Source: Marinosulfonomonas sp. (GTDB taxonomy: Bacteria > Pseudomonadota > Alphaproteobacteria > Rhodobacterales > Rhodobacteraceae). Taken from it: DNA of 41,517 nucleotides. Below the pieces are notes generated by a model, which saw only the letters and a program-made list of their open reading frames with translations, was not told the DNA's origin and made no database searches. This document shows positions 13,747 through 28,382 of this stretch, in pieces (positions within the stretch are counted from its first letter, which is position 1; each line of letters opens with the position of its first letter). The position numbers and the translations under genes are program-made. The stretch is taken from the NCBI GenBank assembly GCA_026989405.1, contig JALSJL010000469.1, positions 1-41,517 on the forward strand, in the 5' to 3' direction.

Positions 13747-15066
13747 TCAGAAGACGCCCTGAAACGCGGTCGCCAGTTTTCCGGCAATCTCATCCACATG
13801 GCGATCTTCCATGATGAAGGGTGGCGCGAGCAATATGTGGTCGCCCCTCTTTCCATCGATCGTTCCACCCATCGGATAGCAAATCAGACCCGCATCGAAT
13901 GCCGCGCGTTTGAGCAGCTTGTGGGTGCCCCGTTCGGCCGGGAACGGCGCCTTGCTGTCGCGGTCTTCGACGATTTCTATTCCGAGAAACAGCCCGCGCC
14001 CCCGGATATCGCCCACATGCGGGTGTTGGCCAAAGGCATCCTGCAGCGCATCGCGCAACTGCTCTCCCCTTGAGCGGACCTGTTGCATCATCGCCGGCTC
14101 GGTAACTTTCTTCAGCACCGCCAATGCTGCGGCACAGGCTGTCGGATGGCCGACATAGGTGTGACCATGCTGAAAAAAACCTGATCCCTCTGCAATGGCC
14201 CGGTAGATCCTGCCCGAACACATCATGGCGCCAATGGGTTGATAGCCCGCGCCCAGCCCCTTTGCGACAACTGCAATGTCCGGATCGATGCCGTCCTGTT
14301 CACTGGCAAAAACCGTCCCGGTCCGGCCCATGCCGCACATGACCTCATCAAGGATCAGCAATACCCCATGACGGCTGCAGATATCGCGAATTCTCTCAAA
14401 ATATCCCGCGACCGGCGTGACCGCGCCCATGGTGGCACCCACGACCGGCTCGGCGACAAAGGCCATGACATTCTCGGCGCCAAGCCGCAGAATTTCACTT
14501 TCCAGCTCATCTGCAACACGCCGGCCGTAGTCCGCGGCGCTCTCGTCGGGGTGGCAATCACGATAGGCGTAACACGGCGAGATATGCGAGGTTTCGATCA
14601 TCATGGGCGAAAACGGCTCTCGGCGCCACATGTTGCCGCCGGTCGCAAGCGCACCAAGCGTGTTCCCATGGTAGCTTTGGCGCCGGGCAATCACCCGGTG
14701 TCTTTGCGGCTCTCCTGTTTCGAGGAAATACTGCCTTGCGAGTTTCAGGGCGGCCTCGACGGCTTCCGAGCCGCCGGATACGAAATAGACCCGGTCAAGT
14801 GAGGCTGGCGCGACGTCCACCAGCAGATCTGCAAGTTGCTCGGCCGCGTCCGAAGTGAAAAACCCGGTGTGGGCGAAGGCCACCTTGTCGATCTGCTCCT
14901 TTATGGCCGAAATGACATCCGGGTCGGAATGCCCAAGGCAAGACACGGCAGCACCGCCCGAGCCGTCGAAATACTGTTTGCCGTCGCGGTCATAAAGATA
15001 CACGCCATCGCCGCGCTCTGCGGTCGGGGGCGGCGGCCCGGCGTGTCTGGGAAATACATGGCTCAT
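13747..15066 (-). CDS. class III (omega-type) PLP aminotransferase
   Basis: 439 aa with LILDEVMCGMGRTG and GHTYVGHP motifs typical of the acetylornithine/GABA/omega-aminotransferase family. Confidence 0.85.
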   Translation of the reverse strand: MSHVFPRHAGPPPPTAERGDGVYLYDRDGKQYFDGSGGAAVSCLGHSDPDVISAIKEQIDKVAFAHTGFFTSDAAEQLADLLVDVAPASLDRVYFVSGGSEAVEAALKLARQYFLETGEPQRHRVIARRQSYHGNTLGALATGGNMWRREPFSPMMIETSHISPCYAYRDCHPDESAADYGRRVADELESEILRLGAENVMAFVAEPVVGATMGAVTPVAGYFERIRDICSRHGVLLILDEVMCGMGRTGTVFASEQDGIDPDIAVVAKGLGAGYQPIGAMMCSGRIYRAIAEGSGFFQHGHTYVGHPTACAAALAVLKKVTEPAMMQQVRSRGEQLRDALQDAFGQHPHVGDIRGRGLFLGIEIVEDRDSKAPFPAERGTHKLLKRAAFDAGLICYPMGGTIDGKRGDHILLAPPFIMEDRHVDEIAGKLATAFQGVF

Positions 15067-15185: not shown

Positions 15186-15770
15186 TCAGCGCAGCCCGTC
15201 CCGGCCTTCTGCGTCTTCGGCCTTCAGCCCGCCGACGCGTGGCAACGGCCGGCCGCTGTCTGTGACAGCCACAGCGACAAGAATTTCGTTCGCGCGCGGC
15301 GCATCGTTCAGCCTGACCTCGATCCCGTCGAAATGGCTGCGCACATAGGCGGCGTCCTTGTGACCGAGCGGCACGTCGAGCGCTTGCCCCATGCCCCCCA
15401 TCTTTTTCGATGACGGCACCAGGGCCGCCCCTTTCCCGACCGCCTTTCGCAGCGGCGCGCCAAGTTTGGGGTGCAGGATCGCGGCGGCATGTTCCAGTTC
15501 CCCGTTTTCACCGACCATGGCCGCCTTGCCATAGCTTTGGGCGTTCTCGGCCGTGATCCCCAGGGCCGCCACGCATTTTTCGCCCAGAAGCCCGCCCAAC
15601 TCGGCGCCGATCTCGATCAGATCACTCAGGTCCTCGACGTATTTTCCGGCGCAAGGGTTGGCAATGACCGCAGCGGCCACGGCCTTGCGCGTCGGGGGCG
15701 ATATTGTCTGACCGGCTTCGCGGCATGTCTCTTCGACAAAAATGGCGATCTTCCTGATGTCGGCTTTCAT
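15186..15770 (-). CDS. 'amino acid synthesis' family protein (DUF1185 / PF06684-like), paralog 1
   Basis: 194 aa, colinear with the adjacent 195-aa paralog. Blocks NPxAGxYVE, YGKxAxVGExGELEH, VPSxKKxGG, LDVP...YVRSHFD, DAPxAxEIL; ends in DGLR. The family call is from memory of such proteins and needs an HMM check. Confidence 0.6.
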   Translation of the reverse strand: MKADIRKIAIFVEETCREAGQTISPPTRKAVAAAVIANPCAGKYVEDLSDLIEIGAELGGLLGEKCVAALGITAENAQSYGKAAMVGENGELEHAAAILHPKLGAPLRKAVGKGAALVPSSKKMGGMGQALDVPLGHKDAAYVRSHFDGIEVRLNDAPRANEILVAVAVTDSGRPLPRVGGLKAEDAEGRDGLR

Positions 15771-16354
15771 CGCAATCCATCCTCTCCCTTGATCTGCCAG
15801 GCTTCCAGCCCGCCGGACCGCGAGTGCACCCGCCCCCCGGTGCTCATGACCAGAACCAGCAGGATTTCATCGGCTTTCGGGGCATCCGCCAACCCGACCT
15901 CCATCGCATCGAAATGGCTGCGCACATATGAGGCATTGGTATGGGTAATGGGCACATCCAGCCTTGTTCCCGGGCCACCGACCTTTTTGGCCGACGGAAC
16001 GATTGCATTGCTGGAGCCGAGCAACTGGCGCATGGCATATCCTCCGGGCGCATGCCAGAGCGCGCCGTGTTCCAGCTCGCCCGCTTCCCCGACGATCGCG
16101 CCCTTGCCGTAGCCCTCGATCATGCCCGGCCCCCCGAGCATGTCGACCAGCCGTTGTGCCATTCTCAGGCCAAGCGGACGCAGGTCTTCGATGAACCCCT
16201 GGATAGTCTCGACATATCGCCCTGCGAACGGGTTTTCGACCACCGCCAGAGCAGCCGCCCGGCGTTGCGGGCTTTCGGGCGGGGGGCCGAACTCATGGAA
16301 GATATCTTCACAATGAGTGGCAAATTTCCTCAGGATCGGTTCAGGCATGTTCAA
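15767..16354 (-). CDS. 'amino acid synthesis' family protein (DUF1185 / PF06684-like), paralog 2
   Basis: 195 aa with the same conserved blocks as paralog 1. Its stop overlaps the paralog 1 start (ATGA at 15767-15770). Confidence 0.6.
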   Translation of the reverse strand: MNMPEPILRKFATHCEDIFHEFGPPPESPQRRAAALAVVENPFAGRYVETIQGFIEDLRPLGLRMAQRLVDMLGGPGMIEGYGKGAIVGEAGELEHGALWHAPGGYAMRQLLGSSNAIVPSAKKVGGPGTRLDVPITHTNASYVRSHFDAMEVGLADAPKADEILLVLVMSTGGRVHSRSGGLEAWQIKGEDGLR

Positions 16355-17225
16355 CCCTTCCAGAGCCGGGGGCGGTCATTGGCAGATGCCCCACCATACG
16401 GTGCGCGCCCCGCAGAAACAAAGCGGCGGCTTCGATCAGCCCGGCCCGATGAAATGCTTGCGCGCGCCTCTGTCCCCGGTCGAGCGCCCGGCGGATATCA
16501 CCACGAGACAGCTCTCCGACCGCGGTCACAACCGCGCGCGCGCCCAGATCGCTGTCGGGCTGAAGCGCGTTCGCCGGCGCACGGGAAATGGCCGGGTGCC
16601 GCGGCAGGTCGACGTCGTTGGCGATCAGCGTGGCCGCAACATCGGCCGCGGCGGCAGACCGGGCCAGAACGGTCACGCTGTCGGCGATACCCATGGACAG
16701 CGAACGCCCGCCAAGGCCGCTGGTCGCAAGACCGCGCACCTTCGTCTCGGCGTCCACCGAGACCACCCCAAGCCGGTGGCCTTGCGGCCCTGCAATCGCC
16801 ACCTCGAAACCGGGGCGGGGCGTGCAGTTCGGCGAAAGATGCAGCGCAATGTCTCCGCCGTTGTTCACATAGGCCCGCCGCAAGGGGGCGGCCGCCTGCA
16901 TGGCCGCCAGCACCTCTTCGGCAACGGCGCCGGCAACGGCCGCCATGGGCGTCACGAAAACCCCGTCGAGCCCGCGAACCGCGGCGCCCATGCGGGCTGC
17001 GACGGCGCCCTCGAACCGGGTGTCGACCCCCACGGGACGGCGCAGAAGCGCAAGCTCCGACACCAGTTCTTCAAGGATCGAGGCAAACCGCCCCTGTGCC
17101 GCCGAAAAGGCGTCCGGGTGCGCAGCTTCGGCCCCGATGATCAGATCGATCGGACCGTGCTGCAGATGCAACCGCTTGCCGGAAAGCCAGGTAGAACGTG
17201 GCCCCATCATGGTTTGCCGTCCCAT
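16341..17225 (-). CDS. UPF0280 family protein (ApbE-like fold suspected)
   Basis: About 290-aa ORF overlapping both neighbours. The alternative start at 17210 would give an ATGA overlap with the upstream stop. The family call rests on memory of this conserved neighbourhood (hnr - UPF0280 - DUF1185) and on size; needs an HMM check. Confidence 0.5.
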   Translation of the reverse strand: MGRQTMMGPRSTWLSGKRLHLQHGPIDLIIGAEAAHPDAFSAAQGRFASILEELVSELALLRRPVGVDTRFEGAVAARMGAAVRGLDGVFVTPMAAVAGAVAEEVLAAMQAAAPLRRAYVNNGGDIALHLSPNCTPRPGFEVAIAGPQGHRLGVVSVDAETKVRGLATSGLGGRSLSMGIADSVTVLARSAAAADVAATLIANDVDLPRHPAISRAPANALQPDSDLGARAVVTAVGELSRGDIRRALDRGQRRAQAFHRAGLIEAAALFLRGAHRMVGHLPMTAPGSGRVEHA

Positions 17226-18694
17226 TTGTAACGCCCTGGATCATGCGGATCCGGCCCGAAACCCCTGACCCGCCGCACTTGTCCTTCCTGGATCGTGTCC
17301 AGCGGCCGGACGTCCTCCATATGTCCGCCCAGGTCCCGATAGTCGGCCAGCCGCATGGTAAACTCGATCGGCGCGACAAGGGCCGGTGTCGGCACATACC
17401 CGAACGCGTTGGTGGGCATTTCGGTAACATCAGCCATGACCGTGATACCGCCCCCCGGCCAGACATAGGCCTGCGCCCCGCCACAGGAAACATAGGTCAG
17501 CGCATCGCGCACCGAACGGGTCAGCCGCACCGGGTTTTCCGTGACCCCGGCCCGCAACGAGCCGCCGGCGCCGCCCATGAACAAGACCGAGCAAAACGAA
17601 GGTTCGCAGTTTTCGGCAATGCGCTCGACTGACGCCTTCAAGGCCGTCGGTATCGGGGCCGGCTGCGGAACCAGATCGGCGTCGAGTTCGAAATAGGCAA
17701 ATTGCTCGCCGGTTGTCGAAACCATCAGCAAACGAAGCCCGGGCCATGCGTATTCGGGGTCTGCGTCCTTGAGGACGGCCAACGGATCCTGCACATTCGT
17801 GCCGCCCCAGCCGGTGCCCGGCTCTGCCACCTGAAAATAGCGGCCCGGTGTTGACCGGCGCCCGTTCACCCGGATGCCCGTGCGTTTCACGCCAAGCAGC
17901 TTGCCCGCCTGATGTTCAGACAGAACGCCGGTAATGTGATCATCGACGACGATGACCTCATCCGCATGATCAACCCATTGGGCCGCAAACATGCCGATGG
18001 CGGCCGACCCGCAGCCCACGCGCATCAGTTTTTCCGCGGTCCCTTCGATTATCGGCGCCTTTCCGGCCTGCACCACGACCTGCGCGCCTTCGTCGATGTC
18101 CATCGTCACCGCGTCCCGGTTGCACAGCCGCAGCACGGCATCACAGGTCACCCGCCCCTCTCGCTTGGAGCCGCCGGTCAGATGCTCGACCCCACCCAGA
18201 GACAGCATGCGCGATCCGTATTCGCTGGTCATGACATGACCGATTGCTTCCCCGTCCACGCGCACCACGGCGCGTTCCTGTCCGATATGGCGGTCGGTGT
18301 CGATCTTCACCTTGACGCCGCAGTAGGAAAATATCCCCTCGGTTACGACGGTCACCATGTCGATGCCGTCGATTTCCTGACTGACGATGAAAGGTGCCGG
18401 TTTGTAGTCAGGGTAGGTTGTGCCCGCGCCAATGGCGGTCACGAACTGGCGACGGCTGTGCAAAAGGTCGCCATCCCAGTCGGCATCGCCGTTTTCGCCC
18501 AGAAACGGCACGGACCTGACACCTTTCCCGGCGCTGGTTTCCAGGATCGTGAGGGGGTCCAGGCGGACCAGCCGGCCTTCCTGGTTTGCATAGCGGTCGC
18601 ACGCCCCGGCCCGACCTTCGGCGATGAAGCACAGAACGGGGCACGCATCGCAACGGATCTTGTCTGCGGAAGCTGTGCGGGATTTCCCGGTCAT
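17207..18694 (-). CDS. 6-hydroxynicotinate reductase-like iron-sulfur flavoprotein
   Basis: Tracked ORF 17207..18769 trimmed to the Met at 18694 (ATGA overlap with the upstream hydroxylase stop). N-terminal Cys cluster CDACPVLCFIAEGRAGAC (CxxCxxxCx9C). Flanked by an XDH-family hydroxylase and an enamidase-like amidohydrolase, as in nicotinate clusters. Confidence 0.6.
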   Translation of the reverse strand: MTGKSRTASADKIRCDACPVLCFIAEGRAGACDRYANQEGRLVRLDPLTILETSAGKGVRSVPFLGENGDADWDGDLLHSRRQFVTAIGAGTTYPDYKPAPFIVSQEIDGIDMVTVVTEGIFSYCGVKVKIDTDRHIGQERAVVRVDGEAIGHVMTSEYGSRMLSLGGVEHLTGGSKREGRVTCDAVLRLCNRDAVTMDIDEGAQVVVQAGKAPIIEGTAEKLMRVGCGSAAIGMFAAQWVDHADEVIVVDDHITGVLSEHQAGKLLGVKRTGIRVNGRRSTPGRYFQVAEPGTGWGGTNVQDPLAVLKDADPEYAWPGLRLLMVSTTGEQFAYFELDADLVPQPAPIPTALKASVERIAENCEPSFCSVLFMGGAGGSLRAGVTENPVRLTRSVRDALTYVSCGGAQAYVWPGGGITVMADVTEMPTNAFGYVPTPALVAPIEFTMRLADYRDLGGHMEDVRPLDTIQEGQVRRVRGFGPDPHDPGRYKWDGKP

Positions 18695-21426
18695 GTTGCG
18701 CCCCCGCGATCGATGGCCGCCTTCAGCCGCGCCGGCGTGACTGGCAGCCGGGTGACACGCACACCGCATGCGGCCCTGATTGCATTCAAGATCGCCGGAG
18801 CCGTGGGCACCAGGGCATGTTCGCCCAGCCCCTTGGCCCCGTATGGCCCATGCGGGTCCGGCTCTTCCACAATCAGCGTTTCAATCGGAGGAATATCGCC
18901 GATTGTCGGGATCAGGTAGTCATGCAGGTTTTCGGTCTTGCCGGGAACATATTCTTCCATCAGAGCCATGCCCAGGCCTTGCGCAATCCCGCCCTGGATC
19001 TGGCCTTCGACCAACAGGGGGTTGATGGCACGGCCGACATCATGGGCCGCCACCATGCGCAGGACGCGGGTCGTGCCCAGCGCCATGTCCACCTCGACGA
19101 CGGCCAACTGCGCGGCGTAGCCAAACTGGGCGTAGGGCTCGCCCTGCCCGTTTTCATCCAGCGGTCTTGTGGGCGGGTCGTAGGTTTCTGCGGCCCGGAA
19201 GACATAGCCTTCGCGGTCGGCATCAAGGCGGGCCAGGTCAATTCGATGGCTCTTGCCGTCGTCGCGCACATGGATGCTTCCGGCGCGCAGGTCAATCACA
19301 CTGTCCGGCGCTGCATTCACCTTGCCAAGTATGTCACGCCGCAGCGCCTCGCCGGTCAGGCGCGCTGCATTTCCGCTGACAAATGTCTGACGTGATGCCG
19401 ATGTCTTGCCGGCATCCGGCGTGATGTCGGTATCGGCCCCCAGGATCCTCATCCTGGAAATCGGCACGCCAAGCGCTTCAGAGAAAATCTGCGCAATAAC
19501 GGTGTTGGAGCCTTGCCCGATATCGACCGCTCCCTGATGGAGCACCAGCGAACCATCGGCGAGGATGCCGGCCTTGATCGTCGAGGGGTTGGGAAGTGAC
19601 GTGTTTCCGCAACCATACCAGCCACAGGCCAGGCCGACTCCCCGTCGCACCCCAGGCGTCGCGCCGCCGGCGTTGACAGCTTTCGCCGCCGCCCGTTCGC
19701 GCTGCCAGAACGGGCGCAGAGCCCTGAGGCAGGCGCCGATACCGACGCCGCGCTCAAACACCTGTCCGCAGACCGTGGGCATGCCATTTTCCAGGGCGTT
19801 TTTCAGCCGGAACTCCAGCGGGTCCAGGCCCAGTTTTTCGGCCAGGTCATCAAACAGGCTTTCTTGCGCCACGGCCGCCTGTGGCACCCCGAAGCCACGA
19901 AACGCACCCGATGGCGGCGCGTTGGTGTGCACGGCCTTCGCCGATGCCCGGTAAGCGCCAACCCGATAGGGGCCCGACGCATGAACCGGCACACGGTTGG
20001 CAACCGTCGGGCCCCATGATGCGTAGGCCCCGGTATTGAATTCCGCTTTGAAATCAAAAGCCTGGATGGCTCCGTCGGCGTTTGCTCCGATCGTCAGACG
20101 CATGATCGCCGGATGCCGTTTGGTTGTCGATTTCATCGACTCCGACCGCGTATAGGCCAGCCTTGCCGGGCGGCCTGTCGCCAGCGCTGCCAGCGCCAGA
20201 TACGGTTGAACCGACAGATCGAGCTTGGCTCCGAACCCCCCGCCAACAGCGGTCGGCACGATGCGGATCCGGTCTGGCTCCATTGCCAGAATACCGGCCA
20301 GGGCTTCCTGGTCCATGGCGGGGGCTTGCGTGCAGGCGTGCAGCTCCAGCCGGCCATCAACCATCTGCGCAAACCCGGCTTCGGGCTCGATATAGGCATG
20401 CTCCACGAATGACGTCTGAAATTCACCGGACACAGTCACGTCCGCCTCGCGCAGGGCGGCTTTCGGATCACCCTGCAAGACAAAACCCTCGCACATCAGG
20501 TTGCCGGGGCGGTCGGCGTGAAGGGGTGTTGCATCGCGCGCCTGTGCCGACGCCAGGTCTTCGACACCCGGCAAGCGGGAAAAGCGGATCGGCAGGTCAT
20601 CAAGATCGAGCGCCCGCAAGGCCGGCGGCTCGCCAATGACCGACGCAACGGCCTCGCCTCTGAACCGGCAGAGTTTTTCTGCAAAAACCGGCTGGTCAAG
20701 AAAGCCCGGAATGACGCCGAACCGATTGCACCCCGGCACGTCCGCAGCCGTCTGGACGGCAACGATCCCCGGATGCGCTGCCAGAAAGGCGGTCGTATCG
20801 CCGATCTCGAAGCTCGCCGCGGCATGGGGAGACCGGACCACCCGAATTTCCAGAGTGCCCGGCGGCGCGATGTCGTCACCGAATTTCTCGCGGCCCTCGA
20901 CTTTTGCCAGACCATCGGTTTTTCGGATCGCCGCCCCGACGCCCCCCTCGCGCAGGCGTTCTTCAGGCGCGCGCACCGCCAGCACGGCCGCAATGATCTT
21001 GCGGTATCCCGTGCACCTGCACAAGACACCGCCAAGCGCATCCATCACCGCTTTTTCGTCGGGCTCCGGGCACTCGCGCAACAGCGCCGTCGCGCAGACC
21101 AGCATGCCCGGCGTGCACACCCCACATTGAGCGGCGCCAAAATCCTGAAAGCTCTCGCAGAGCCCGGCGGCAATCGGGTCACCTCCGGCAAGCCCCGACA
21201 CGGTTTCAACCAGGCGACCGGCCGCCTGGTGGACCGGCATGAGGCAGGCGCAAATCGGTTTGCCATCCACCAGAACGGTGCAGGCGCCACAGTCTCCGGC
21301 ATCGCATCCGACCTTCACATCGCGGCCATCAAGCCGTTCGCGCAGCGCATGAGACAGCCGTTCGCCGGGATCGGCCGTCACAGTGACCGGCCGGCCGTTC
21401 AGGTTGAACGCCACCATATCAGTCAT
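18691..21426 (-). CDS. xanthine dehydrogenase-family molybdenum hydroxylase, fused 2x[2Fe-2S] + MoCo subunits (candidate nicotinate/N-heterocycle hydroxylase)
   Basis: N-terminus has CDAGDCGACTV, CGVCTPGM and CRCTGY ferredoxin motifs. The C-terminal ~750 aa is an aldehyde oxidase/XDH a/b-hammerhead plus MoCo-binding region (VGGGFGAKL). 911 aa. Confidence 0.85.
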   Translation of the reverse strand: MTDMVAFNLNGRPVTVTADPGERLSHALRERLDGRDVKVGCDAGDCGACTVLVDGKPICACLMPVHQAAGRLVETVSGLAGGDPIAAGLCESFQDFGAAQCGVCTPGMLVCATALLRECPEPDEKAVMDALGGVLCRCTGYRKIIAAVLAVRAPEERLREGGVGAAIRKTDGLAKVEGREKFGDDIAPPGTLEIRVVRSPHAAASFEIGDTTAFLAAHPGIVAVQTAADVPGCNRFGVIPGFLDQPVFAEKLCRFRGEAVASVIGEPPALRALDLDDLPIRFSRLPGVEDLASAQARDATPLHADRPGNLMCEGFVLQGDPKAALREADVTVSGEFQTSFVEHAYIEPEAGFAQMVDGRLELHACTQAPAMDQEALAGILAMEPDRIRIVPTAVGGGFGAKLDLSVQPYLALAALATGRPARLAYTRSESMKSTTKRHPAIMRLTIGANADGAIQAFDFKAEFNTGAYASWGPTVANRVPVHASGPYRVGAYRASAKAVHTNAPPSGAFRGFGVPQAAVAQESLFDDLAEKLGLDPLEFRLKNALENGMPTVCGQVFERGVGIGACLRALRPFWQRERAAAKAVNAGGATPGVRRGVGLACGWYGCGNTSLPNPSTIKAGILADGSLVLHQGAVDIGQGSNTVIAQIFSEALGVPISRMRILGADTDITPDAGKTSASRQTFVSGNAARLTGEALRRDILGKVNAAPDSVIDLRAGSIHVRDDGKSHRIDLARLDADREGYVFRAAETYDPPTRPLDENGQGEPYAQFGYAAQLAVVEVDMALGTTRVLRMVAAHDVGRAINPLLVEGQIQGGIAQGLGMALMEEYVPGKTENLHDYLIPTIGDIPPIETLIVEEPDPHGPYGAKGLGEHALVPTAPAILNAIRAACGVRVTRLPVTPARLKAAIDRGGAT

Positions 21427-22309
21427 GGCGCACCGCCAGCCCGGCTGCCGACGTCATGGCCCGGCGGATCAGTTCGGCGGCGGCGTCCAGCCGATAGCCA
21501 GCCGTGGCGCGGACATCATCGATGGCGGCAAGGGCCGACAGGTCCTGCGGTCTCACCAATGCCGGGTCGGCCAGGCCGGATACCGGCGTGCCCTGCAAAC
21601 GCTGCTCCAGCGCGCCCAACCTGGTGGCCACGGGCGAACAGGCCCCCACGGCCACCCGAAGATCGTCCAGGCACCCCGCCTTCAGCCGAACCGCCACCGC
21701 GACCATCGCAATCGAGATCACAAGATATTGCCGCGCGCCCAGTTTTTCGAAGGCGCTGGCAAGGCCCCTTGCCGGCGGGATACGCACGCCGATCAGGATT
21801 TCGTCCTTGTGTCGCGCGGTCTTGCGGACCCCCCGCAAGAATTGCGACAGGGCAATGACGCGCTTTCCGCTGACAGAAGCAAGATGCACTTCGGCATCCA
21901 GAACCAGCAGCGGCGGTATTCCATCAGCCGCCGGCGATGCGTTGCAGATATTGCCGCCAAGGGTTGCCGCGTTCTGAATCTGTCGGGCGCCAACCTCGCG
22001 CGCCGCCTGTTGCAGTCCGCAAAAGGCCGGCGGCAGATCGGCATCCCGGATTTCGGCCCAGGTGGTCGCGCCACCGATCCACCAACCGCCCCCCTGGTCC
22101 TTGCCCTCAGGCCAGATACCCCGCAACGTCTCGATGCGCGTGATGTCCAGCAGGTCGCGATCAGGCACCGATTGACCGGCGGCCGGAAAATGGTCCGTTC
22201 CGCCAGCCACAATCTGCGCCCCCGCCGCAAGAACGTCCAATGCGTCATCCAGAGAATTGGGAGCGAAATAGGTCACGGCTTTCCCTGCGCGGTTTTGTTT
22301 GCATGCCAA
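21419..22309 (-). CDS. FAD-binding subunit of the molybdenum hydroxylase (CoxM/XdhB-like)
   Basis: 296 aa with the AGGTD motif (IVAGGTDHFPA). It overlaps the downstream hydroxylase start by 8 nt. A GTG at 22276 is an alternative start. Confidence 0.8.
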   Translation of the reverse strand: MACKQNRAGKAVTYFAPNSLDDALDVLAAGAQIVAGGTDHFPAAGQSVPDRDLLDITRIETLRGIWPEGKDQGGGWWIGGATTWAEIRDADLPPAFCGLQQAAREVGARQIQNAATLGGNICNASPAADGIPPLLVLDAEVHLASVSGKRVIALSQFLRGVRKTARHKDEILIGVRIPPARGLASAFEKLGARQYLVISIAMVAVAVRLKAGCLDDLRVAVGACSPVATRLGALEQRLQGTPVSGLADPALVRPQDLSALAAIDDVRATAGYRLDAAAELIRRAMTSAAGLAVRHD

Positions 22310-22428
22310 CGATACGTCCCCAGGCCGATCGCTGTCAATTTCCCAGTCAGCAAGGGCCCTGGTTTCCCCGGCTTGATCGCCTCTGCAAACATGTTAGCAT
22401 ACGAATGAAATCATGCTGGGGGGTGCCC

Positions 22429-23607
22429 ATGGACAGACACTCACAAAAACTGGTGGTGCGCAACATCGGCTTGATGCTGTCAGGCATGCTGGAACACCCC
22501 ATTCTTGACGCCGACTGCATTGTCGCCGTTGACGGGAAGATCGCGGCCATCGGATTTGAAAAAGACCTGGACACCGACGGCGCAACGACGACTGTCGATG
22601 CACATGGCGTCACGCTTGCCCCGGGTCTGATCGACAGCCACGTTCACCCTGTCATCGGAGACTATACGCCGCGCCAGCAACAGCTGCACTGGATCGACAG
22701 CACGTTGCATGGCGGCGTGACAACCATGATTTCGGCAGGTGAAGTTCATTTGCCGGGTCGGCCCAAGGATGTGGTCGGCCTCAAGGCGATGGCCATCGCG
22801 TCGCAGAGATGGTACGAAAATTTCCGCCCGTCGGGCGTCAAGGTTCATGCCGGCGCGCCCATTCTTGAAGAAGGCATGGTCGAACAGGACTTCAAGGACC
22901 TGGCCGACGCCGGCGTCAAGCTGTTGGGCGAAGTCGGCCTTGGAACCGTCAAGGACGGCAAGACGGCAAGACAAATGGTCGGCTGGGCAAGAAAATACGG
23001 CATTCAAAGCACCATCCATACCGGGGGCCCCTCAATCCCGGGATCGGGACTGATCGACGCCGACATGGTTCTGGAAACCGGCGCCGACGTCATTGGCCAC
23101 ATCAACGGCGGCCACTCTGCCTTGCCCGATGATCAGATCATCTGCCTTTGTGAAAACTGCTCCAAGGGGCTGGAAATCGTGCACAACGGCAATGAGCGCG
23201 CCGCTGTCCTGACGCTGAATACCGCGCGCGAGCTGAAACAACTGAACCGGGTCATTCTCGGAACTGACGGGCCGGCGGGATCGGGGGTGCAGCCGCTTGG
23301 CATCTTGCGGATGGTGTCGATGTTGTCAGCCTTTGGCAATGTTCCGGCCGAGCAGGCGTTTTGTTTTGCAACCGGCAACACGGCGCGCGAACGCGGGCTG
23401 GATTGCGGCATTCTCGCTCACGGTCGCTCGGCGGATTTCGTTCTCATGGACCAGGCCCAGCACGCCCCGGGAAAGAACATTCTCGAAAGCGTGCAGCTTG
23501 GCAACCTGCCGGGTATCGGCATGACGATCATTGATGGTGTCATTTGCAGCCATCGCAGCCGCAACACGCCGCCGGCACAGCGCTTGCCCCAGGAGGTGAC
23601 CGCCTGA
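22429..23607 (+). CDS. enamidase-like metal-dependent amidohydrolase
   Basis: Tracked ORF 22240..23607 trimmed to the Met at 22429 (GGGGGG RBS-like sequence). About 392 aa with the HxH metal motif IDSHVHP. Divergent from the hydroxylase/hnr operon, matching the ena position in nicotinate clusters. Confidence 0.65.
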   Translation: MDRHSQKLVVRNIGLMLSGMLEHPILDADCIVAVDGKIAAIGFEKDLDTDGATTTVDAHGVTLAPGLIDSHVHPVIGDYTPRQQQLHWIDSTLHGGVTTMISAGEVHLPGRPKDVVGLKAMAIASQRWYENFRPSGVKVHAGAPILEEGMVEQDFKDLADAGVKLLGEVGLGTVKDGKTARQMVGWARKYGIQSTIHTGGPSIPGSGLIDADMVLETGADVIGHINGGHSALPDDQIICLCENCSKGLEIVHNGNERAAVLTLNTARELKQLNRVILGTDGPAGSGVQPLGILRMVSMLSAFGNVPAEQAFCFATGNTARERGLDCGILAHGRSADFVLMDQAQHAPGKNILESVQLGNLPGIGMTIIDGVICSHRSRNTPPAQRLPQEVTA

Positions 23608-23763
23608 CCAGATCGGCACCCGACACCAAGCGCCCCTGTTGTGCGGCCGACCTGCCCCGAACCTTCCGGGACTTCGAATTTTCTGGACAATAATTTTGCT
23701 GGCACTCAATCTAGTGGAAAACGACCGGGAGCTGGTCGACACTCAATACCAGGGAGACGAAAC

Positions 23764-25050
23764 ATGGCTCAACAGAAAACCGATGGCCTGATCGCACCGA
23801 CCCGCCGGGCGGTGCTCAAGGGCGTGGCGGCGACAGGCCTGGCAACGGCCATGCCCGGCCACCTGTATGGCGCAACCGACGAGCCGATCCGCGTCGGATT
23901 TCAGGTGCACCGCACCGGCATCGGCGCATCCTACGGCCGCTGGTATGACCGCACGACCACCGCCGCGGCCCGCGTCATCAACGAAGCCGGCGGGATCAAC
24001 GGCAGACCCCTCGAGATCATTGCCGAAGACGACGGCACCGACCCGAAACGCGGGGCGGAAGTCCTTGAGAAATTCGCAAACCAGCACAATTGCGATATTG
24101 CCTACGGCACATTGTTCAGCCATGTGGTCATCGGATCGGCCCCGCGCGCGGCCGAGTTGAAACTGCCCTATTTCGTGGTCTCTGAAGGCCACCATGTCGC
24201 GTCCGGCATGCTCAACCGCTACACGCTGCAACCGGGTATCACCGACGTCAAGAGCCAGGTCCAGGCCATGGCCCCGTTTGTCGCGGCCAACCTTGGCAAG
24301 AAGGTCACGATGATCTACCCGGATTTCGCTTTCGGCCACAACCACCGGGATTTCTTCGGTGACGCGATCGAAAAGGAAGGCGGCCAGGTTGTCGCGAAAA
24401 TCGCCATTCCGCCAACCGAAACATCTTTCACCCGGTATTTCCCGCAGATCCCGCGCGAGACCGAGGTGATCTATCATGTGATGGTCGGTCCGGCCGTTCT
24501 GACCTTTGTGAAGGAGATGGGCGAATTTTTCGGCCCGTCGAGCCCGGAAATTTTCGGGTTCATCGATTCACTCGAGGCCGTCGACCTGGCAACGCCGGGG
24601 CTGGAATTTCTGGACGGGTCCTTCTTCTGGGAAGGCCACCCGCGCTATGCACAGCCGGACCAGACCGAATATGACAAATTCTACCGTGAGCAGGTCGGCG
24701 TCGATGAAAATGGCGCCTCGGTCGATGACCCCAGGGACGTTTCCACCTACTCGCACATGTTCGCGTGCTGGGAAACGCTGCATGTGATCAAGGATGGCAT
24801 GGAAGCGGCGGGCTACAAGGGGCCGCAGGACCGGGCGGCGCTGATCGAAGCGGTCGAGGCGATGACCGACATGCCGGAAAGCCGGGCCCATCCACAGGGC
24901 CCCAAGATATTCAACGGCAAGACCCACCAGGTTTTCGGCGTGCAGTATATCAGCCAGGTCAACGGCGGCCGGCTTGACGTGAAACATGTCACGTCGATCG
25001 AAGACGGGCTGTATCCGGACGAAGTGGACTACACCACCCAGCCGCTCTGA
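23764..25050 (+). CDS. ABC transporter periplasmic substrate-binding protein (Leu/Ile/Val-binding, HAAT family) with Tat-type signal
   Basis: Tracked ORF 23641..25050 trimmed to the Met at 23764 (AGGGAGA RBS). N-terminal PTRRAVLKGVAATGLATAMPG fits the S/T-R-R-x-F-L-K twin-arginine motif. Followed by LivHMGF-type genes. Confidence 0.75.
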   Translation: MAQQKTDGLIAPTRRAVLKGVAATGLATAMPGHLYGATDEPIRVGFQVHRTGIGASYGRWYDRTTTAAARVINEAGGINGRPLEIIAEDDGTDPKRGAEVLEKFANQHNCDIAYGTLFSHVVIGSAPRAAELKLPYFVVSEGHHVASGMLNRYTLQPGITDVKSQVQAMAPFVAANLGKKVTMIYPDFAFGHNHRDFFGDAIEKEGGQVVAKIAIPPTETSFTRYFPQIPRETEVIYHVMVGPAVLTFVKEMGEFFGPSSPEIFGFIDSLEAVDLATPGLEFLDGSFFWEGHPRYAQPDQTEYDKFYREQVGVDENGASVDDPRDVSTYSHMFACWETLHVIKDGMEAAGYKGPQDRAALIEAVEAMTDMPESRAHPQGPKIFNGKTHQVFGVQYISQVNGGRLDVKHVTSIEDGLYPDEVDYTTQPL

Positions 25051-25060
25051 GACCCGAGTC

Positions 25061-25090
25061 GCATGCCCTGCCCGCTGGGGTCGGGCATGC
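25061..25090 (+). other. intercistronic stem-loop between the binding-protein and permease genes
   Basis: GCATGCCC (25061-25068) / GGGCATGC (25083-25090), an 8-bp stem with a 14-nt loop, 10 nt after the SBP stop. Such hairpins often set SBP:permease stoichiometry. Confidence 0.4.
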
Positions 25091-25124
25091 ATCGCAGCCA
25101 CCGTTCCAACCACATCAGGACGCT

Positions 25125-26051
25125 ATGGATTTCGGCCCGCACCTACTCCTTGCCATGCTCGAAGGGCTTGTGCAGGCCTCGGTCCTGACGCTGACGGCGC
25201 TGGGGCTGTCACTGGTTTTCGGTGTGATGCGGGTCGTGAATGTCGCCCATGGCGAATTTTTCATGCTGGGTGCGGTGCTGGCATGGTGGATCACCTTTCT
25301 GGTTGGCGGCCCGCCGGCGCTGGCCTTCATCGTGGCACTTCTGGTTGCGCCACTTCTGGTGGGAACAATTGCCGCTGCCGCCGACTGGCTGGTCTTGCGC
25401 CGGATCGACTATGATCCCGAGCGCACGATCGTTGCCACGATCGGGCTCTTGTATATTATCCAACAGCTCACGCTGATGTCCTATGGGCCGGATGCGCGCC
25501 CGGTTGCGCCGCCGTTCAACACGCGTCTGGCTCTGCCCTGGTTCGAATTCGGCAGCGGGGGGGTGCAGATCTACTGGCCCTGGGGCCTTTCGATCACAAG
25601 TTACAAGCTGTTCGTCATATTCGCAGCCCTTCTGACCGGGCTTGCTCTCTGGGCGGTCATGGCGCGGTCCCGCCTCGGGCTGATCTTGCGGGCAACCCAG
25701 CAAGACCGGGAAACCGCGCAGGCATTCGGCGTGCCGGTCGAGCGTGTCTATGCCCTGGTTTTCGGCCTTGGCGCGGCCCTTGCGGCCCTGGGCGCGACAC
25801 TGGTCGTGCCCATTCAGCAGGCGCATTACCTGATGGGAGGCGATCCGCTGCTGCTCAGCTTCATCGTGGTGATTATCGGCGGGCTGGGCTCGTTGCGCGG
25901 CACTGTTGTCGCGGCCATTCTCATCGGCATGAGCGACGGCATCATCTCGGTTTTCTTTTCCCCCACGCTGGCCAAGATGCTGGCCACGCTTCTTGTGGCC
26001 ATGGTGCTGGTCTTTCGCCCGCAGGGTCTGTTCGGAAGCAAGCCGGCATGA
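25125..26051 (+). CDS. branched-chain amino acid-type ABC transporter permease (LivH-like)
   Basis: 308-aa polytopic membrane protein typical of LivH-type permeases. ATGA overlap with the next permease gene. Confidence 0.85.
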   Translation: MDFGPHLLLAMLEGLVQASVLTLTALGLSLVFGVMRVVNVAHGEFFMLGAVLAWWITFLVGGPPALAFIVALLVAPLLVGTIAAAADWLVLRRIDYDPERTIVATIGLLYIIQQLTLMSYGPDARPVAPPFNTRLALPWFEFGSGGVQIYWPWGLSITSYKLFVIFAALLTGLALWAVMARSRLGLILRATQQDRETAQAFGVPVERVYALVFGLGAALAALGATLVVPIQQAHYLMGGDPLLLSFIVVIIGGLGSLRGTVVAAILIGMSDGIISVFFSPTLAKMLATLLVAMVLVFRPQGLFGSKPA

Positions 26052-26983
26052 GCCGCGCCGTGGGCCTGCACCTGGGGGTGATCGCCGCGCTGTTGGCGTT
26101 GCAGTTCGTGTTGCCGGCCTATCACCATGGCGTCCTTGCGCGGGTGATGGTGATGGCGGTCTTTGCCATGGGCTACAACGTGATGTTCGGCTACACGGGT
26201 TTGCTGAGCCTTGGGCACGCGATGTTCTTTGCCGCCGGCATGTATGGCATGGGGCTTGCCATGAAACAGTGGGACGTGCCGCTTGTGCCGGCGTTCCTGC
26301 TGGGCATCGCGGCGGCGTTCCTTCTGGCGCTTGTCGTCGGCGTGCTGGCACTGCGCACGGCGGGCGTGGCCTTCATGATCGTGACGCTGATGTTTTCACA
26401 GTCCCTTTTCCTGGCCATTCTCCATTTCGGGGCGATCACCCGCGGGGATGAGGGCTTTGCCCTGGCCCGGTCCCTGCGCCAGGTTGCCGGGCTGGACCTG
26501 GCGGCGCCGGCAACACGCTATTTCGCGGCATGGGGCCTGTTTTCCGTTGTCTTGCTTGGCACGCTCGCCCTGGTGCGCTCGCGCCGTGGTCGCGTCCTGG
26601 TGGCCATCCGGGAAAACGAAGAGCGCACCCGGATGCTGGGCTACGATGTCTGGCGCCACAAGCTGATGGCGGTTGTGGTCTCGGGCACGATCTGCGGTGC
26701 CGCGGGGGCGGCCTACGGGGTGTTGTTTGGCTATGTCGGCGCCAGCTTTTCGCAGGTGCCCTATTCGATCTTTCCGCTGTTGTGGGTGTTGCTTGGTGGC
26801 GCCGGCACGGTGATCGGGCCGTTCGTGGGAACGCTGTTCATGTTCTACCTGATCGACCTGTCCAGCGGGCTGACCGACGCATACATGCTGGTTGTTGGCG
26901 TTGCGCTCGTGCTGCTGACGCTGTTCCTGCCCAGGGGGCTGATGGGAAGCCTGCGCGACCGGGGGATGAAATGGCTGCCGTGA
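26048..26983 (+). CDS. branched-chain amino acid-type ABC transporter permease (LivM-like)
   Basis: 311-aa polytopic membrane protein with the YTGLLSLGHAMFF motif typical of LivM. Confidence 0.85.
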   Translation: MSRAVGLHLGVIAALLALQFVLPAYHHGVLARVMVMAVFAMGYNVMFGYTGLLSLGHAMFFAAGMYGMGLAMKQWDVPLVPAFLLGIAAAFLLALVVGVLALRTAGVAFMIVTLMFSQSLFLAILHFGAITRGDEGFALARSLRQVAGLDLAAPATRYFAAWGLFSVVLLGTLALVRSRRGRVLVAIRENEERTRMLGYDVWRHKLMAVVVSGTICGAAGAAYGVLFGYVGASFSQVPYSIFPLLWVLLGGAGTVIGPFVGTLFMFYLIDLSSGLTDAYMLVVGVALVLLTLFLPRGLMGSLRDRGMKWLP

Positions 26984-27687
26984 GCTTGTTGAGCACCCAT
27001 GCCCTGAGCCGCAACTATGGCGGGTTGCAGGCCGTGAAAAACGTCAGCCTTGACATATCGCAGGGCGAGGTCCGCGCGCTGATCGGGCCAAATGGCGCCG
27101 GAAAGACCACCCTGGTTTCAATGCTGTGCGGACGCATCCCGGCGACCTCTGGCCAGGTGGTGTTCGAGGGCCGCGACGTGACAACCCTGCCCGCTCACCG
27201 ACGCATAGCACTGGGCATGGCCTATACGTTCCAGATCACGTCCGTTTTTGCCGAACTGAGCGTGAGTGAAAACGTGGAACTGGCCGTTCAGCGGCATATC
27301 GCCGAGCGCCAGAAGATCACGGCACAGGTTGACCGGACGCTGGAACGGGTCGGGCTGGGCCGGATGGCAGACAGGACCGCAGGCGACCTTGCCTATGGCC
27401 ACCAGAGGTTGCTGGAAATTGCGATGGGTCTGGGACAGACTCCAAAACTGTTGATCCTCGATGAGCCGACGCAGGGACTGTCCGACAGCGAGATCGAAGA
27501 CTTTGTTGCGCTCATCCGCTCGGTTTCGGAAAAATCAACTGTCCTGCTCATCGAGCACAACATCAATGTTGTCATGGCGCTTGCCGACAAGATCACCGTT
27601 CTGAATTTCGGAGAGATCATCGCCGAGGGCACACCCGGGGAAATCCGTGCAAACGAGGCGGTGCAGACCGCCTATCTGGGGGGCTGA
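26971..27687 (+). CDS. ABC transporter ATP-binding protein (LivG-like)
   Basis: Tracked ORF 26530..27687 trimmed to the Met at 26971 (a GTG at 26980 is also possible). Walker A GPNGAGKTT, signature-like LAYGHQRLLEIA, Walker B LLILDEP. Confidence 0.9.
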   Translation: MAAVSLLSTHALSRNYGGLQAVKNVSLDISQGEVRALIGPNGAGKTTLVSMLCGRIPATSGQVVFEGRDVTTLPAHRRIALGMAYTFQITSVFAELSVSENVELAVQRHIAERQKITAQVDRTLERVGLGRMADRTAGDLAYGHQRLLEIAMGLGQTPKLLILDEPTQGLSDSEIEDFVALIRSVSEKSTVLLIEHNINVVMALADKITVLNFGEIIAEGTPGEIRANEAVQTAYLGG

Positions 27688-28382
27688 TGCTGGAACTGCG
27701 CAACCTTGATGCGGGCTATGGCAAGGTGCAGGTGCTGCGCGACCTTTCACTGCACGCCAGGCCCGGTGAAATCCTGTGCCTGCTCGGGCGCAACGGGGCC
27801 GGCAAGTCGACATTGATGAAATCCATCATGGGGCTGGTCCGGGCGCAGGCCGGCAGCATCTGGCTTGACGGGCAGCGGATTGACCAGCTGCCGGCCTGGC
27901 AGGTGCCCAGGCTGGGCATCGGATATATCCCTCAGGGGCGCCGGCTGTTCAACGAGATGACCGTCGCCGAGAACCTTCAGATCGGACTGATGGCGCGACG
28001 CAAGGGCGCGGATGTGCGCGAAAACGTGCTGAACATGTTTCCGCGCCTGCGTGACCGGCTGAACCAGCGGGCCGACACGCTGTCGGGTGGTGAACAGCAG
28101 ATGCTGGCCACCGCCCGCGCGTTGTGCCTTGAACCAGGTGTCTTGTTGCTTGATGAGCCGACAGAGGGTTTGCAGCCCTCGATGATATCGCTGATCCGCG
28201 CGGCGGTTGTCGCGCTCAGGAAACAGGGGGTTGCCATCGTTCTGGTCGAACAGCGGGTGGAAGCCGTCCTGCAGGTCGCCGATCGGGTGACATTTGTGGA
28301 AAACGGTCAATGCGTGCTGACGGTCACGCCCAGCGAACTGCACGCCGACGAAAGCCTGCTGCATCGCTACGTCGGGGTTTAG
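27687..28382 (+). CDS. ABC transporter ATP-binding protein (LivF-like)
   Basis: Walker A GRNGAGKST, signature LSGGEQQML, Walker B LLLDEP. TGATG 1-nt overlap with the upstream ATPase gene. Confidence 0.9.
   Translation: MLELRNLDAGYGKVQVLRDLSLHARPGEILCLLGRNGAGKSTLMKSIMGLVRAQAGSIWLDGQRIDQLPAWQVPRLGIGYIPQGRRLFNEMTVAENLQIGLMARRKGADVRENVLNMFPRLRDRLNQRADTLSGGEQQMLATARALCLEPGVLLLDEPTEGLQPSMISLIRAAVVALRKQGVAIVLVEQRVEAVLQVADRVTFVENGQCVLTVTPSELHADESLLHRYVGV

Follow-up and report, generated by a model that had tools for sequence, protein, structure and literature searches.

The window analyzed here is a stretch of 41,517 nucleotides (nt) from Marinosulfonomonas sp. (GenBank assembly GCA_026989405.1, contig JALSJL010000469.1), one contig of a 93%-complete alphaproteobacterial metagenome-assembled genome (MAG). 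It carries on the minus strand a gene of the UPF0280 family, which overlaps the end of hnr, the gene for a homologue of 6-hydroxynicotinate reductase (Hnr). The UPF0280 protein has an ApbE-like fold in its predicted structure, retains the Ser, Asp, Thr and Gly-Gly-Asp residues of the ApbE pocket, and is co-inherited with Hnr; in all likelihood, it serves Hnr as a dedicated accessory protein. Transfer of flavin to Hnr is tentatively put forward as the leading mechanism, on the basis of the fold, the conserved pocket and the covalent flavin reported for E. barkeri Hnr.

Junction of the UPF0280 gene with hnr

The two genes and their junction lie as follows.

16341..17225, minus strand: UPF0280 (COG2122, DUF375) gene, 294 amino acids (aa) as the longest open reading frame (ORF), recognized by NF003322
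17207..17210, minus strand: ATGA junction of hnr and UPF0280, read from the sequence (TGA at 17209-17207, ATG at 17210-17208)
17207..18694, minus strand: Hnr homologue, 495 aa, named after its relatives in the source databases

The ORFs listed for 16341-17225 and 17207-18694 in an earlier note on this DNA were reproduced as stated, and the overlap of the UPF0280 frame with the stop of the reductase-like gene, also reported there, was borne out: read from 17225, the longest UPF0280 ORF overlaps the end of hnr by 19 nt. In-frame ATG codons are found at 17210 and 17207, both inside the longest ORF. Translation probably starts at 17210, giving a protein of 289 aa and a 4-nt ATGA overlap, because 114 relatives conserve the corresponding residue (Met6) to at least 90%, and residue 6 is also where the NCBIfam alignment begins. 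The relatives represent 2017 matches (E ≤ 1e-3) found by searching 1.84 billion proteins. A scan of 185,579 species genomes provided 80 reference loci hosting UPF0280, nearly all labelled Alphaproteobacteria. Taking the closest possible UPF0280 start, 41 of them have a 4-nt overlap with the hnr stop and 17 a 1-nt overlap, together 58 of the 75 related loci. Since such short overlaps recur across the reference loci, the arrangement is, by sequence comparison, not a product of chance.

Fold of the UPF0280 protein

The protein scores 346.3 bits with NF003322 (PRK04334.1-2, UPF0280), the cut-off being 290, and its residues 6-283 align to profile positions 1-281. DVU1097 (PDB 2o34) was retrieved at E 3e-4 with the single sequence, and at E 3.4e-13 by profile. 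It was the sole match of the UPF0280 profile among PDB sequences, which returned no ApbE; the link to ApbE therefore needs profile-profile or fold comparison. The AlphaFold2 model of the protein has a predicted local distance difference test score (pLDDT) of 93.8. In Foldseek searches it retrieved 2o34 first (E 5e-10), then FmnB, ApbE and Ftp chains (E 5e-6 to 1e-3), unrelated folds appearing at about 0.8. VIA-align superposed the model on 2o34 with Z 20.1 (root mean square deviation, rmsd, 3.3 over 214 residues), and on 19 entries of the ApbE/Ftp/FmnB type, TM1553 included, with Z 14.0-16.6 (about 215 residues, rmsd about 3.5, model residues 15-289). Other T-fold proteins (urate oxidase) come next, at Z 7.4. 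The earlier note had placed UPF0280 in the ApbE-like superfamily; the model of 16341..17225 and both fold comparisons uphold this assignment, and the protein is predicted to be cytoplasmic, with the two-T-fold ApbE architecture extending over the whole chain.

Pocket residues in common with ApbE

The 114 UPF0280 sequences were compared by hhalign with an ApbE alignment built from ten alphaproteobacterial genes (probability 96.5%, E 9e-10, residues 99-201 of UPF0280). The following residues are paired by hhalign.

UPF0280 G99: Gly of AKGY in ApbE
UPF0280 GGD125: GGE in ApbE
UPF0280 ATS169G: ATSG in ApbE
UPF0280 D195 and T199: AD..AT in ApbE

Ser, His and Asp residues in the ApbE set are spaced by 16 and 28 residues, as are Ser241, His257 and Asp285 in V. 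cholerae ApbE, the only conserved residues of the catalytic centre according to a 2025 review (PMC12052999). Ser169 and Asp195 of UPF0280 correspond to Ser241 and Asp285, respectively. The aligned pocket residues are invariant in the 114 representatives and in seven loci reached through an Hnr motif only, the UPF0280 proteins of which are 40-50% identical. UPF0280 and the ApbE/Ftp/FmnB proteins (PF02424) have in common the two-T-fold body and the Ser, Asp, Thr and GGD/E residues of the Mg2+/pyrophosphate pocket, UPF0280 being about 40-50 residues shorter.

Linkage and co-occurrence of UPF0280 and hnr

The hnr gene is immediately upstream of UPF0280 in 72 of the 75 reference loci having enough upstream DNA, and a DUF1185 gene immediately downstream in 75 of 79. 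In two of the three exceptions (L010 and L030) the nicotinate-dehydrogenase-like gene (ndh), UPF0280 and DUF1185 follow each other with no hnr in between, and hnr (69% identity) is found elsewhere in the genome. Among 401 evenly sampled Pseudomonadota genomes, of which the related ones are non-independent, both genes reside in the same 21 genomes, always adjacent, and neither is present in the remaining 380, with no discordant case.

Metagenomes were searched with an AT-biased DNA pattern for the Hnr motif YVWPGGGIT. All nine contigs obtained (GC 31-61%) contain both genes, adjacent in 8 of 8 testable cases, and the pattern reached low-GC loci 60-71% identical to the window Hnr. Neither the relatives listed in the protein search, which are close ones only, nor the matches of the AT-biased pattern included Firmicute or E. 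barkeri-type Hnr. UPF0280 was also detected in 27 plasmids, mostly annotated beside a "6-hydroxynicotinate reductase". A canonical ApbE was not found in the MAG of the window, 93% complete, nor in eight Hnr-holding genomes listed as 100% complete (G331, G058, G298, G325, G262, G289, G259 and G306), that is, in 9 of the 21 holders.

Some loci deserve separate mention. The nicotinate operon with hnr-UPF0280 is carried by metagenome contigs of very low GC content (31-39%; L104, L105, L108 and L110; Hnr identity 60-65%), which places the nicotinate pathway in AT-rich lineages as well. On plasmid pBPS33-1 of Hydrogenophaga sp. BPS33 (L101; NZ_CP044550.1, 164248-179087) UPF0280 directly follows an IS1071 transposase, with no hnr. 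The plasmid has repeated IS1071-bounded modules and four UPF0280 matches in the record, and this UPF0280 gene looks like a remnant of the cluster moved by a composite transposon. In the genome hosting L010 (G001), the relocated hnr (region L083:629-3793) overlaps by 4 nt the start of an SMP-30/gluconolactonase-like gene downstream, and has upstream a divergent gene for an FNR-like reductase (FAD_binding_6 and NAD_binding_1), which in aerobes could supply Hnr with electrons from NAD(P)H. Full-length Hnr and full-length UPF0280 are fused in frame in at least five ORFs of 742-792 aa from metagenome assemblies (P0274, P0276, P0279, P0281 and P0292). All the fused ORFs are single-member, nameless clusters, and fusions are missing in the 80 reference loci; they may be rare real fusions or frameshift errors at the ATGA junction, and were treated as possible artefacts.

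The nicotinate operon of the window

Genes with overlapping junctions form a chain on the minus strand, from 22309 down to an aminotransferase gene at 13747. The hnr start and the Mo-hydroxylase stop overlap as ATGA at 18691-18694, the first DUF1185 gene and the UPF0280 stop by 14 nt. Genes other than hnr and UPF0280 are listed below.

21419..22309, minus strand: flavin adenine dinucleotide (FAD) subunit of a molybdenum (Mo) hydroxylase of the xanthine dehydrogenase family, first gene of the operon (Pfam FAD_binding_5, CO_deh_flav_C)
18691..21426, minus strand: nicotinate-dehydrogenase-like Mo-hydroxylase, fused 2x[2Fe-2S] and molybdenum cofactor (MoCo) subunit (Pfam Fer2, Fer2_2, Ald_Xan_dh_C, MoCoBD_1/2)
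15767..16354, minus strand: DUF1185 (AA_synth), paralogue a (PF06684, E 7e-70)
15186..15770, minus strand: DUF1185 (AA_synth), paralogue b (PF06684, E 8e-73)
13747-15066, minus strand: class III aminotransferase, end of the chain
22240..23607, plus strand: enamidase-like amidohydrolase, divergent (Pfam Amidohydro_1/3)
23641-28382, plus-strand side, divergent from the operon: HAAT-type ATP-binding cassette (ABC) importer, after the enamidase-like gene (Peripla_BP_6, BPD_transp_2, ABC_tran)

The operon is of the known proteobacterial nicotinate cluster type, described in Azorhizobium caulinodans (AZC_2790-2804) and Bradyrhizobium (blr3818-3830; PMC3511419). The Mo-hydroxylase, Hnr, the enamidase and the ABC transporter are likewise found in the E. 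barkeri nicotinate cluster and in its proteobacterial version. DUF1185 paralogue b matches PDB 2qtp, an uncharacterised protein, at E 7e-99, and 3byq is also related. The paralogues have a solved near-identical relative; some lineages retain just one of the two. The best DNA match of the window is a hydrothermal vent metagenome, and no RNA set was listed for it.

The Hnr homologue

The 495-aa product of the gene next to UPF0280 is 73-82% identical to proteins called 6-hydroxynicotinate reductase by NCBI and UniRef, and a Bradyrhizobiaceae homologue is reported to be 42% identical to E. barkeri Hnr (PMC3511419). Source names, this identity and the operon context mark it as a putative homologue of Hnr (EC 1.3.7.1). 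No Pfam domain was matched. The structural model has a mean pLDDT of 68.5, is good only over residues 100-370, and falls below 50 over residues 1-100; Foldseek and a wide VIA-align comparison against the PDB gave no convincing known fold (best Z 4.2). A flavin-binding domain of the classical kind cannot be seen in this model, which is weak enough to leave room for such a domain as for a known fold. A complex prediction of Hnr with UPF0280 scored 0.00, and counts neither for nor against an interaction.

Eight Cys residues, in two sets of four (15, 18, 22, 32 and 125, 228, 363, 404), are conserved across alpha- and betaproteobacterial Hnr proteins 59-82% identical to that of the window, and would suffice for two clusters. 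Betaproteobacterial Hnr has lost Cys184 and Cys191; its N-terminus is lengthened by a conserved stretch of about 45 aa (MTEHTKTDGLPGMD...), and its C-terminus bears the tail NPWPLG..P.LG. P0004 (654 aa), considered as a Hnr-UPF0280 fusion, is instead a Hnr in which an internal stretch, residues ~156-330, is duplicated in tandem, probably through an error of assembly. In one complete genome (G026:C1:2969820-2971210) Hnr is found in two adjacent pieces in different frames (residues 12-245 and 244-472), a split or frameshifted hnr, with UPF0280 still following it. An Atlas search for Firmicute or E. barkeri-type Hnr pointed to Fer4-bearing clusters in Bacillota and Thermodesulfobacteriota, with scores of 0.84-0.88, as a lead only.

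UPF0280 relatives in homocysteine synthesis

The earlier note regarded UPF0280 as an orphan family. This is wrong, as two members have phenotypes in DUF39-dependent homocysteine synthesis. DvMF_0044 (COG2122) of D. vulgaris Miyazaki F is required for this synthesis together with DUF39 and NIL/ferredoxin proteins, its fitness correlating with that of DUF39 at r = 0.98, and M. acetivorans depends on MA1715 (COG2122) when sulfide is low (Price et al. 2018, PMC5764234). A role of COG2122 in persulfide formation was suggested by Rauch and co-workers who, as related in PMC5764234, stated that the homology of COG2122 to ApbE seemingly stops short of the flavin-binding region.

DVU1097, DvMF_0044 and MA1715 are of the same family as the window protein. 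DVU1097, the closest structure, and the window UPF0280 feature the same AAVAG, NGGD, S..G[RH]S.S.G..D and AD.AAT motifs. Because these are active-site motifs, the two proteins probably carry out the same chemistry, the client alone differing. In both settings the gene is accessory to a ferredoxin-dependent Fe-S enzyme system. The window protein, in contrast, belongs to another subfamily (NF003322; the other UPF0280 subfamilies, NF003321/3/4, match in methanogens such as M. jannaschii and M. acetivorans), is about 45 residues longer, and its subfamily is tied to hnr, never to DUF39. DUF39/HcyBio (PF01837) was found in none of the 401 Pseudomonadota genomes, the 21 holders of UPF0280 among them, methanogen controls being matched, and the window Hnr does not match the PF01837 model. 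The subfamily also lacks conserved Cys residues: Cys stays under 20% in every column of the alignment, and 6 of the 114 members have no Cys at all. The C-terminal Cys cluster of methanogen COG2122 (PMC9431491) has no counterpart in the window protein.

Function of UPF0280

Translational coupling would supply UPF0280 in a fixed proportion to Hnr. The pocket formed by Ser169, Asp195, Thr199 and Gly-Gly-Asp125 would accommodate Mg2+ together with the pyrophosphate/AMP moiety of FAD, the protein binding FAD-Mg2+ or a similar dinucleotide cofactor. The flavin part would be transferred or handed over to Hnr. This Fe-S protein, the fold of which is not recognised, would thereby acquire a covalent flavin of the kind reported for the E. 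barkeri enzyme. The latter is reported to contain, besides the covalent flavin, one [2Fe-2S] cluster and two of the [4Fe-4S] type. Should an enzyme flavinylate Hnr, it cannot in general be ordinary ApbE, which was not found in nine of the Hnr holders. The SdhE/SdhAF2 assembly factors offer a comparison in the way of working only, being small helpers dedicated to the covalent flavin of one client. The fold of SdhE is unrelated to that of UPF0280, and SdhE is a chaperone of an autocatalytic 8-alpha-histidyl linkage, not a nucleotide-binding enzyme. Cytoplasmic ApbE proteins linked to a client are on record (PMC12052999): K. pneumoniae has a signal-less ApbE, and in trypanosomatids an ApbE domain is fused to fumarate reductase.

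The suggestion made in the earlier note, that UPF0280 is a dedicated flavin transferase or maturation factor of Hnr, stands in part. The ApbE-like fold, the retained Ser, Asp, Thr and GGD residues and the specific linkage to hnr speak for it; several observations weigh against flavin transfer. The Pfam ApbE model (PF02424) scores 18.9 bits on UPF0280, under the gathering threshold of 25.6 (E 0.0011, residues 97-176 only), and the protein is therefore a member of UPF0280 and of the ApbE-like superfamily lying outside the ApbE family proper. The loop hosting the general base His257 of ApbE (Y-E-R...H-x-x-D-P-x-T-G) is deleted, its H-x-x-D-P-x-T-G segment aligning to gaps. The deletion spans 18 residues, the spacing from Ser to Asp being 26 in UPF0280 vs. 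44 in ApbE; a conserved G-[RH]-S-x-S-L-G-I-A-D loop stands in its place, and the conserved His20 and His23 lie outside this region. A search of Hnr for a flavinylation site gave no match to D-x-x-[ST]-G-A-[ST], the acceptor motif carried by ApbE clients (PMC12052999), either in strict or in relaxed form, the nearest conserved stretch being T-[AG]-[IV]-G-[AS]-[GS]-T-T-Y-P-D-Y. Since the His loop is replaced and Hnr, the presumed client, has no such motif, UPF0280 cannot copy the chemistry of ApbE. The UPF0280-family members for which genetic data exist act in homocysteine synthesis only, with no known flavoprotein client. Co-inheritance does not tell whether the client is Hnr or the product of another operon gene, DUF1185 being nearly as tightly linked (75/79), and in L010 and L030, where hnr moved, UPF0280 remains with ndh and DUF1185. 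Finally, a covalent flavin is known for E. barkeri Hnr only. These points notwithstanding, flavin transfer, itself held at less than even odds, ranks above the three alternatives discussed below.

UPF0280 might mature Hnr in a different manner, in parallel to COG2122 in the DUF39/NIL-ferredoxin homocysteine pathway, helping to build or repair a sulfur-containing or Fe-S site of a ferredoxin-dependent reductase instead of handling flavin, perhaps with a nucleotide-dependent activation step. The genetic requirement for MA1715 and DvMF_0044 in sulfide assimilation and homocysteine formation (PMC5764234) and the active-site motifs found also in DVU1097 are in line with such a role, as are the eight conserved Cys of Hnr and the fact that the Hnr and DUF39 systems are both of Fe-S, ferredoxin type, with a catalytic protein of unrecognised fold. 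Yet the UPF0280 protein cannot itself carry a persulfide, because its subfamily lacks conserved Cys, and the absence of PF01837 from the 401 genomes and from Hnr, as that of a Cys cluster of the methanogen type (PMC9431491), sets it further apart from the homocysteine pathway. Such a function is considered unlikely.

UPF0280 could also be a stable subunit of proteobacterial Hnr, binding flavin or a nucleotide or serving in docking, rather than a maturation catalyst. The ATGA/TGATG overlaps suggest 1:1 synthesis by translational coupling, ApbE-fold proteins bind FAD tightly (title of PDB 3pnd), Hnr has no recognisable flavin domain, and singleton fused ORFs occur in metagenome assemblies. These fusions, however, are one-member clusters missing from the reference loci, and may be frameshift errors. 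UPF0280 moreover diverges faster than its putative partner (~54% vs. ~70% identity in the same loci), and in two genomes hnr has been relocated beside other genes. E. barkeri Hnr was reportedly purified as a single flavin-carrying polypeptide, which also counts against a subunit. The overall picture makes this arrangement improbable.

Quite unlikely, too, is a UPF0280 that serves as a pathway enzyme or factor with a target other than Hnr, either a small molecule or the product of another gene of the operon (DUF1185, Mo-hydroxylase). In favour of such a target, the whole operon is co-inherited, so that profiles cannot single out Hnr, DUF1185 comes next in nearly all loci, UPF0280 stays between ndh and DUF1185 in L010 and L030, and the pocket would fit other dinucleotides, as the molybdopterin cytosine dinucleotide of the hydroxylase. 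Against it, the hnr-UPF0280 pair is kept with no ndh nearby in Bradyrhizobium-type loci and with no DUF1185 in L048, L054, L066 and L080, and none of the known pathway steps (hydroxylation, ring reduction, enamidase hydrolysis) still needs an enzyme of suitable fold.

Significance for Hnr and the UPF0280 family

The present analysis adds the exact co-occurrence of the two genes (21/21), the number of Hnr-holding genomes in which no ApbE was found, the mapping of the His-loop deletion from residue spacing, the lack of conserved Cys and of DUF39, and the two genomes with relocated hnr. In the reductive breakdown of nicotinate (vitamin B3), Hnr catalyses the key step, the reduction of the ring, and a dedicated partner with the ApbE fold is of interest; as a maturation factor, UPF0280 would likely be required to obtain active heterologous Hnr. 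If flavin transfer holds true, the widespread UPF0280/COG2122 family would gain a biochemical activity, and enzymatic flavinylation a new type of active site and a new acceptor site. On a broader scale, UPF0280/COG2122 might represent another class of cofactor transferases with the ApbE fold, the second one, cytoplasmic and devoid of the His, which would load a flavin or a different group derived from a dinucleotide onto ferredoxin-dependent Fe-S reductases of unrecognised fold, the clients being Hnr and, in anaerobes, the DUF39/NIL-ferredoxin homocysteine system. This generalization is a doubtful one, with the odds well against it; if true, a single transferase activity would account for the covalent flavin found on Hnr as well as for the need for COG2122 in homocysteine synthesis.

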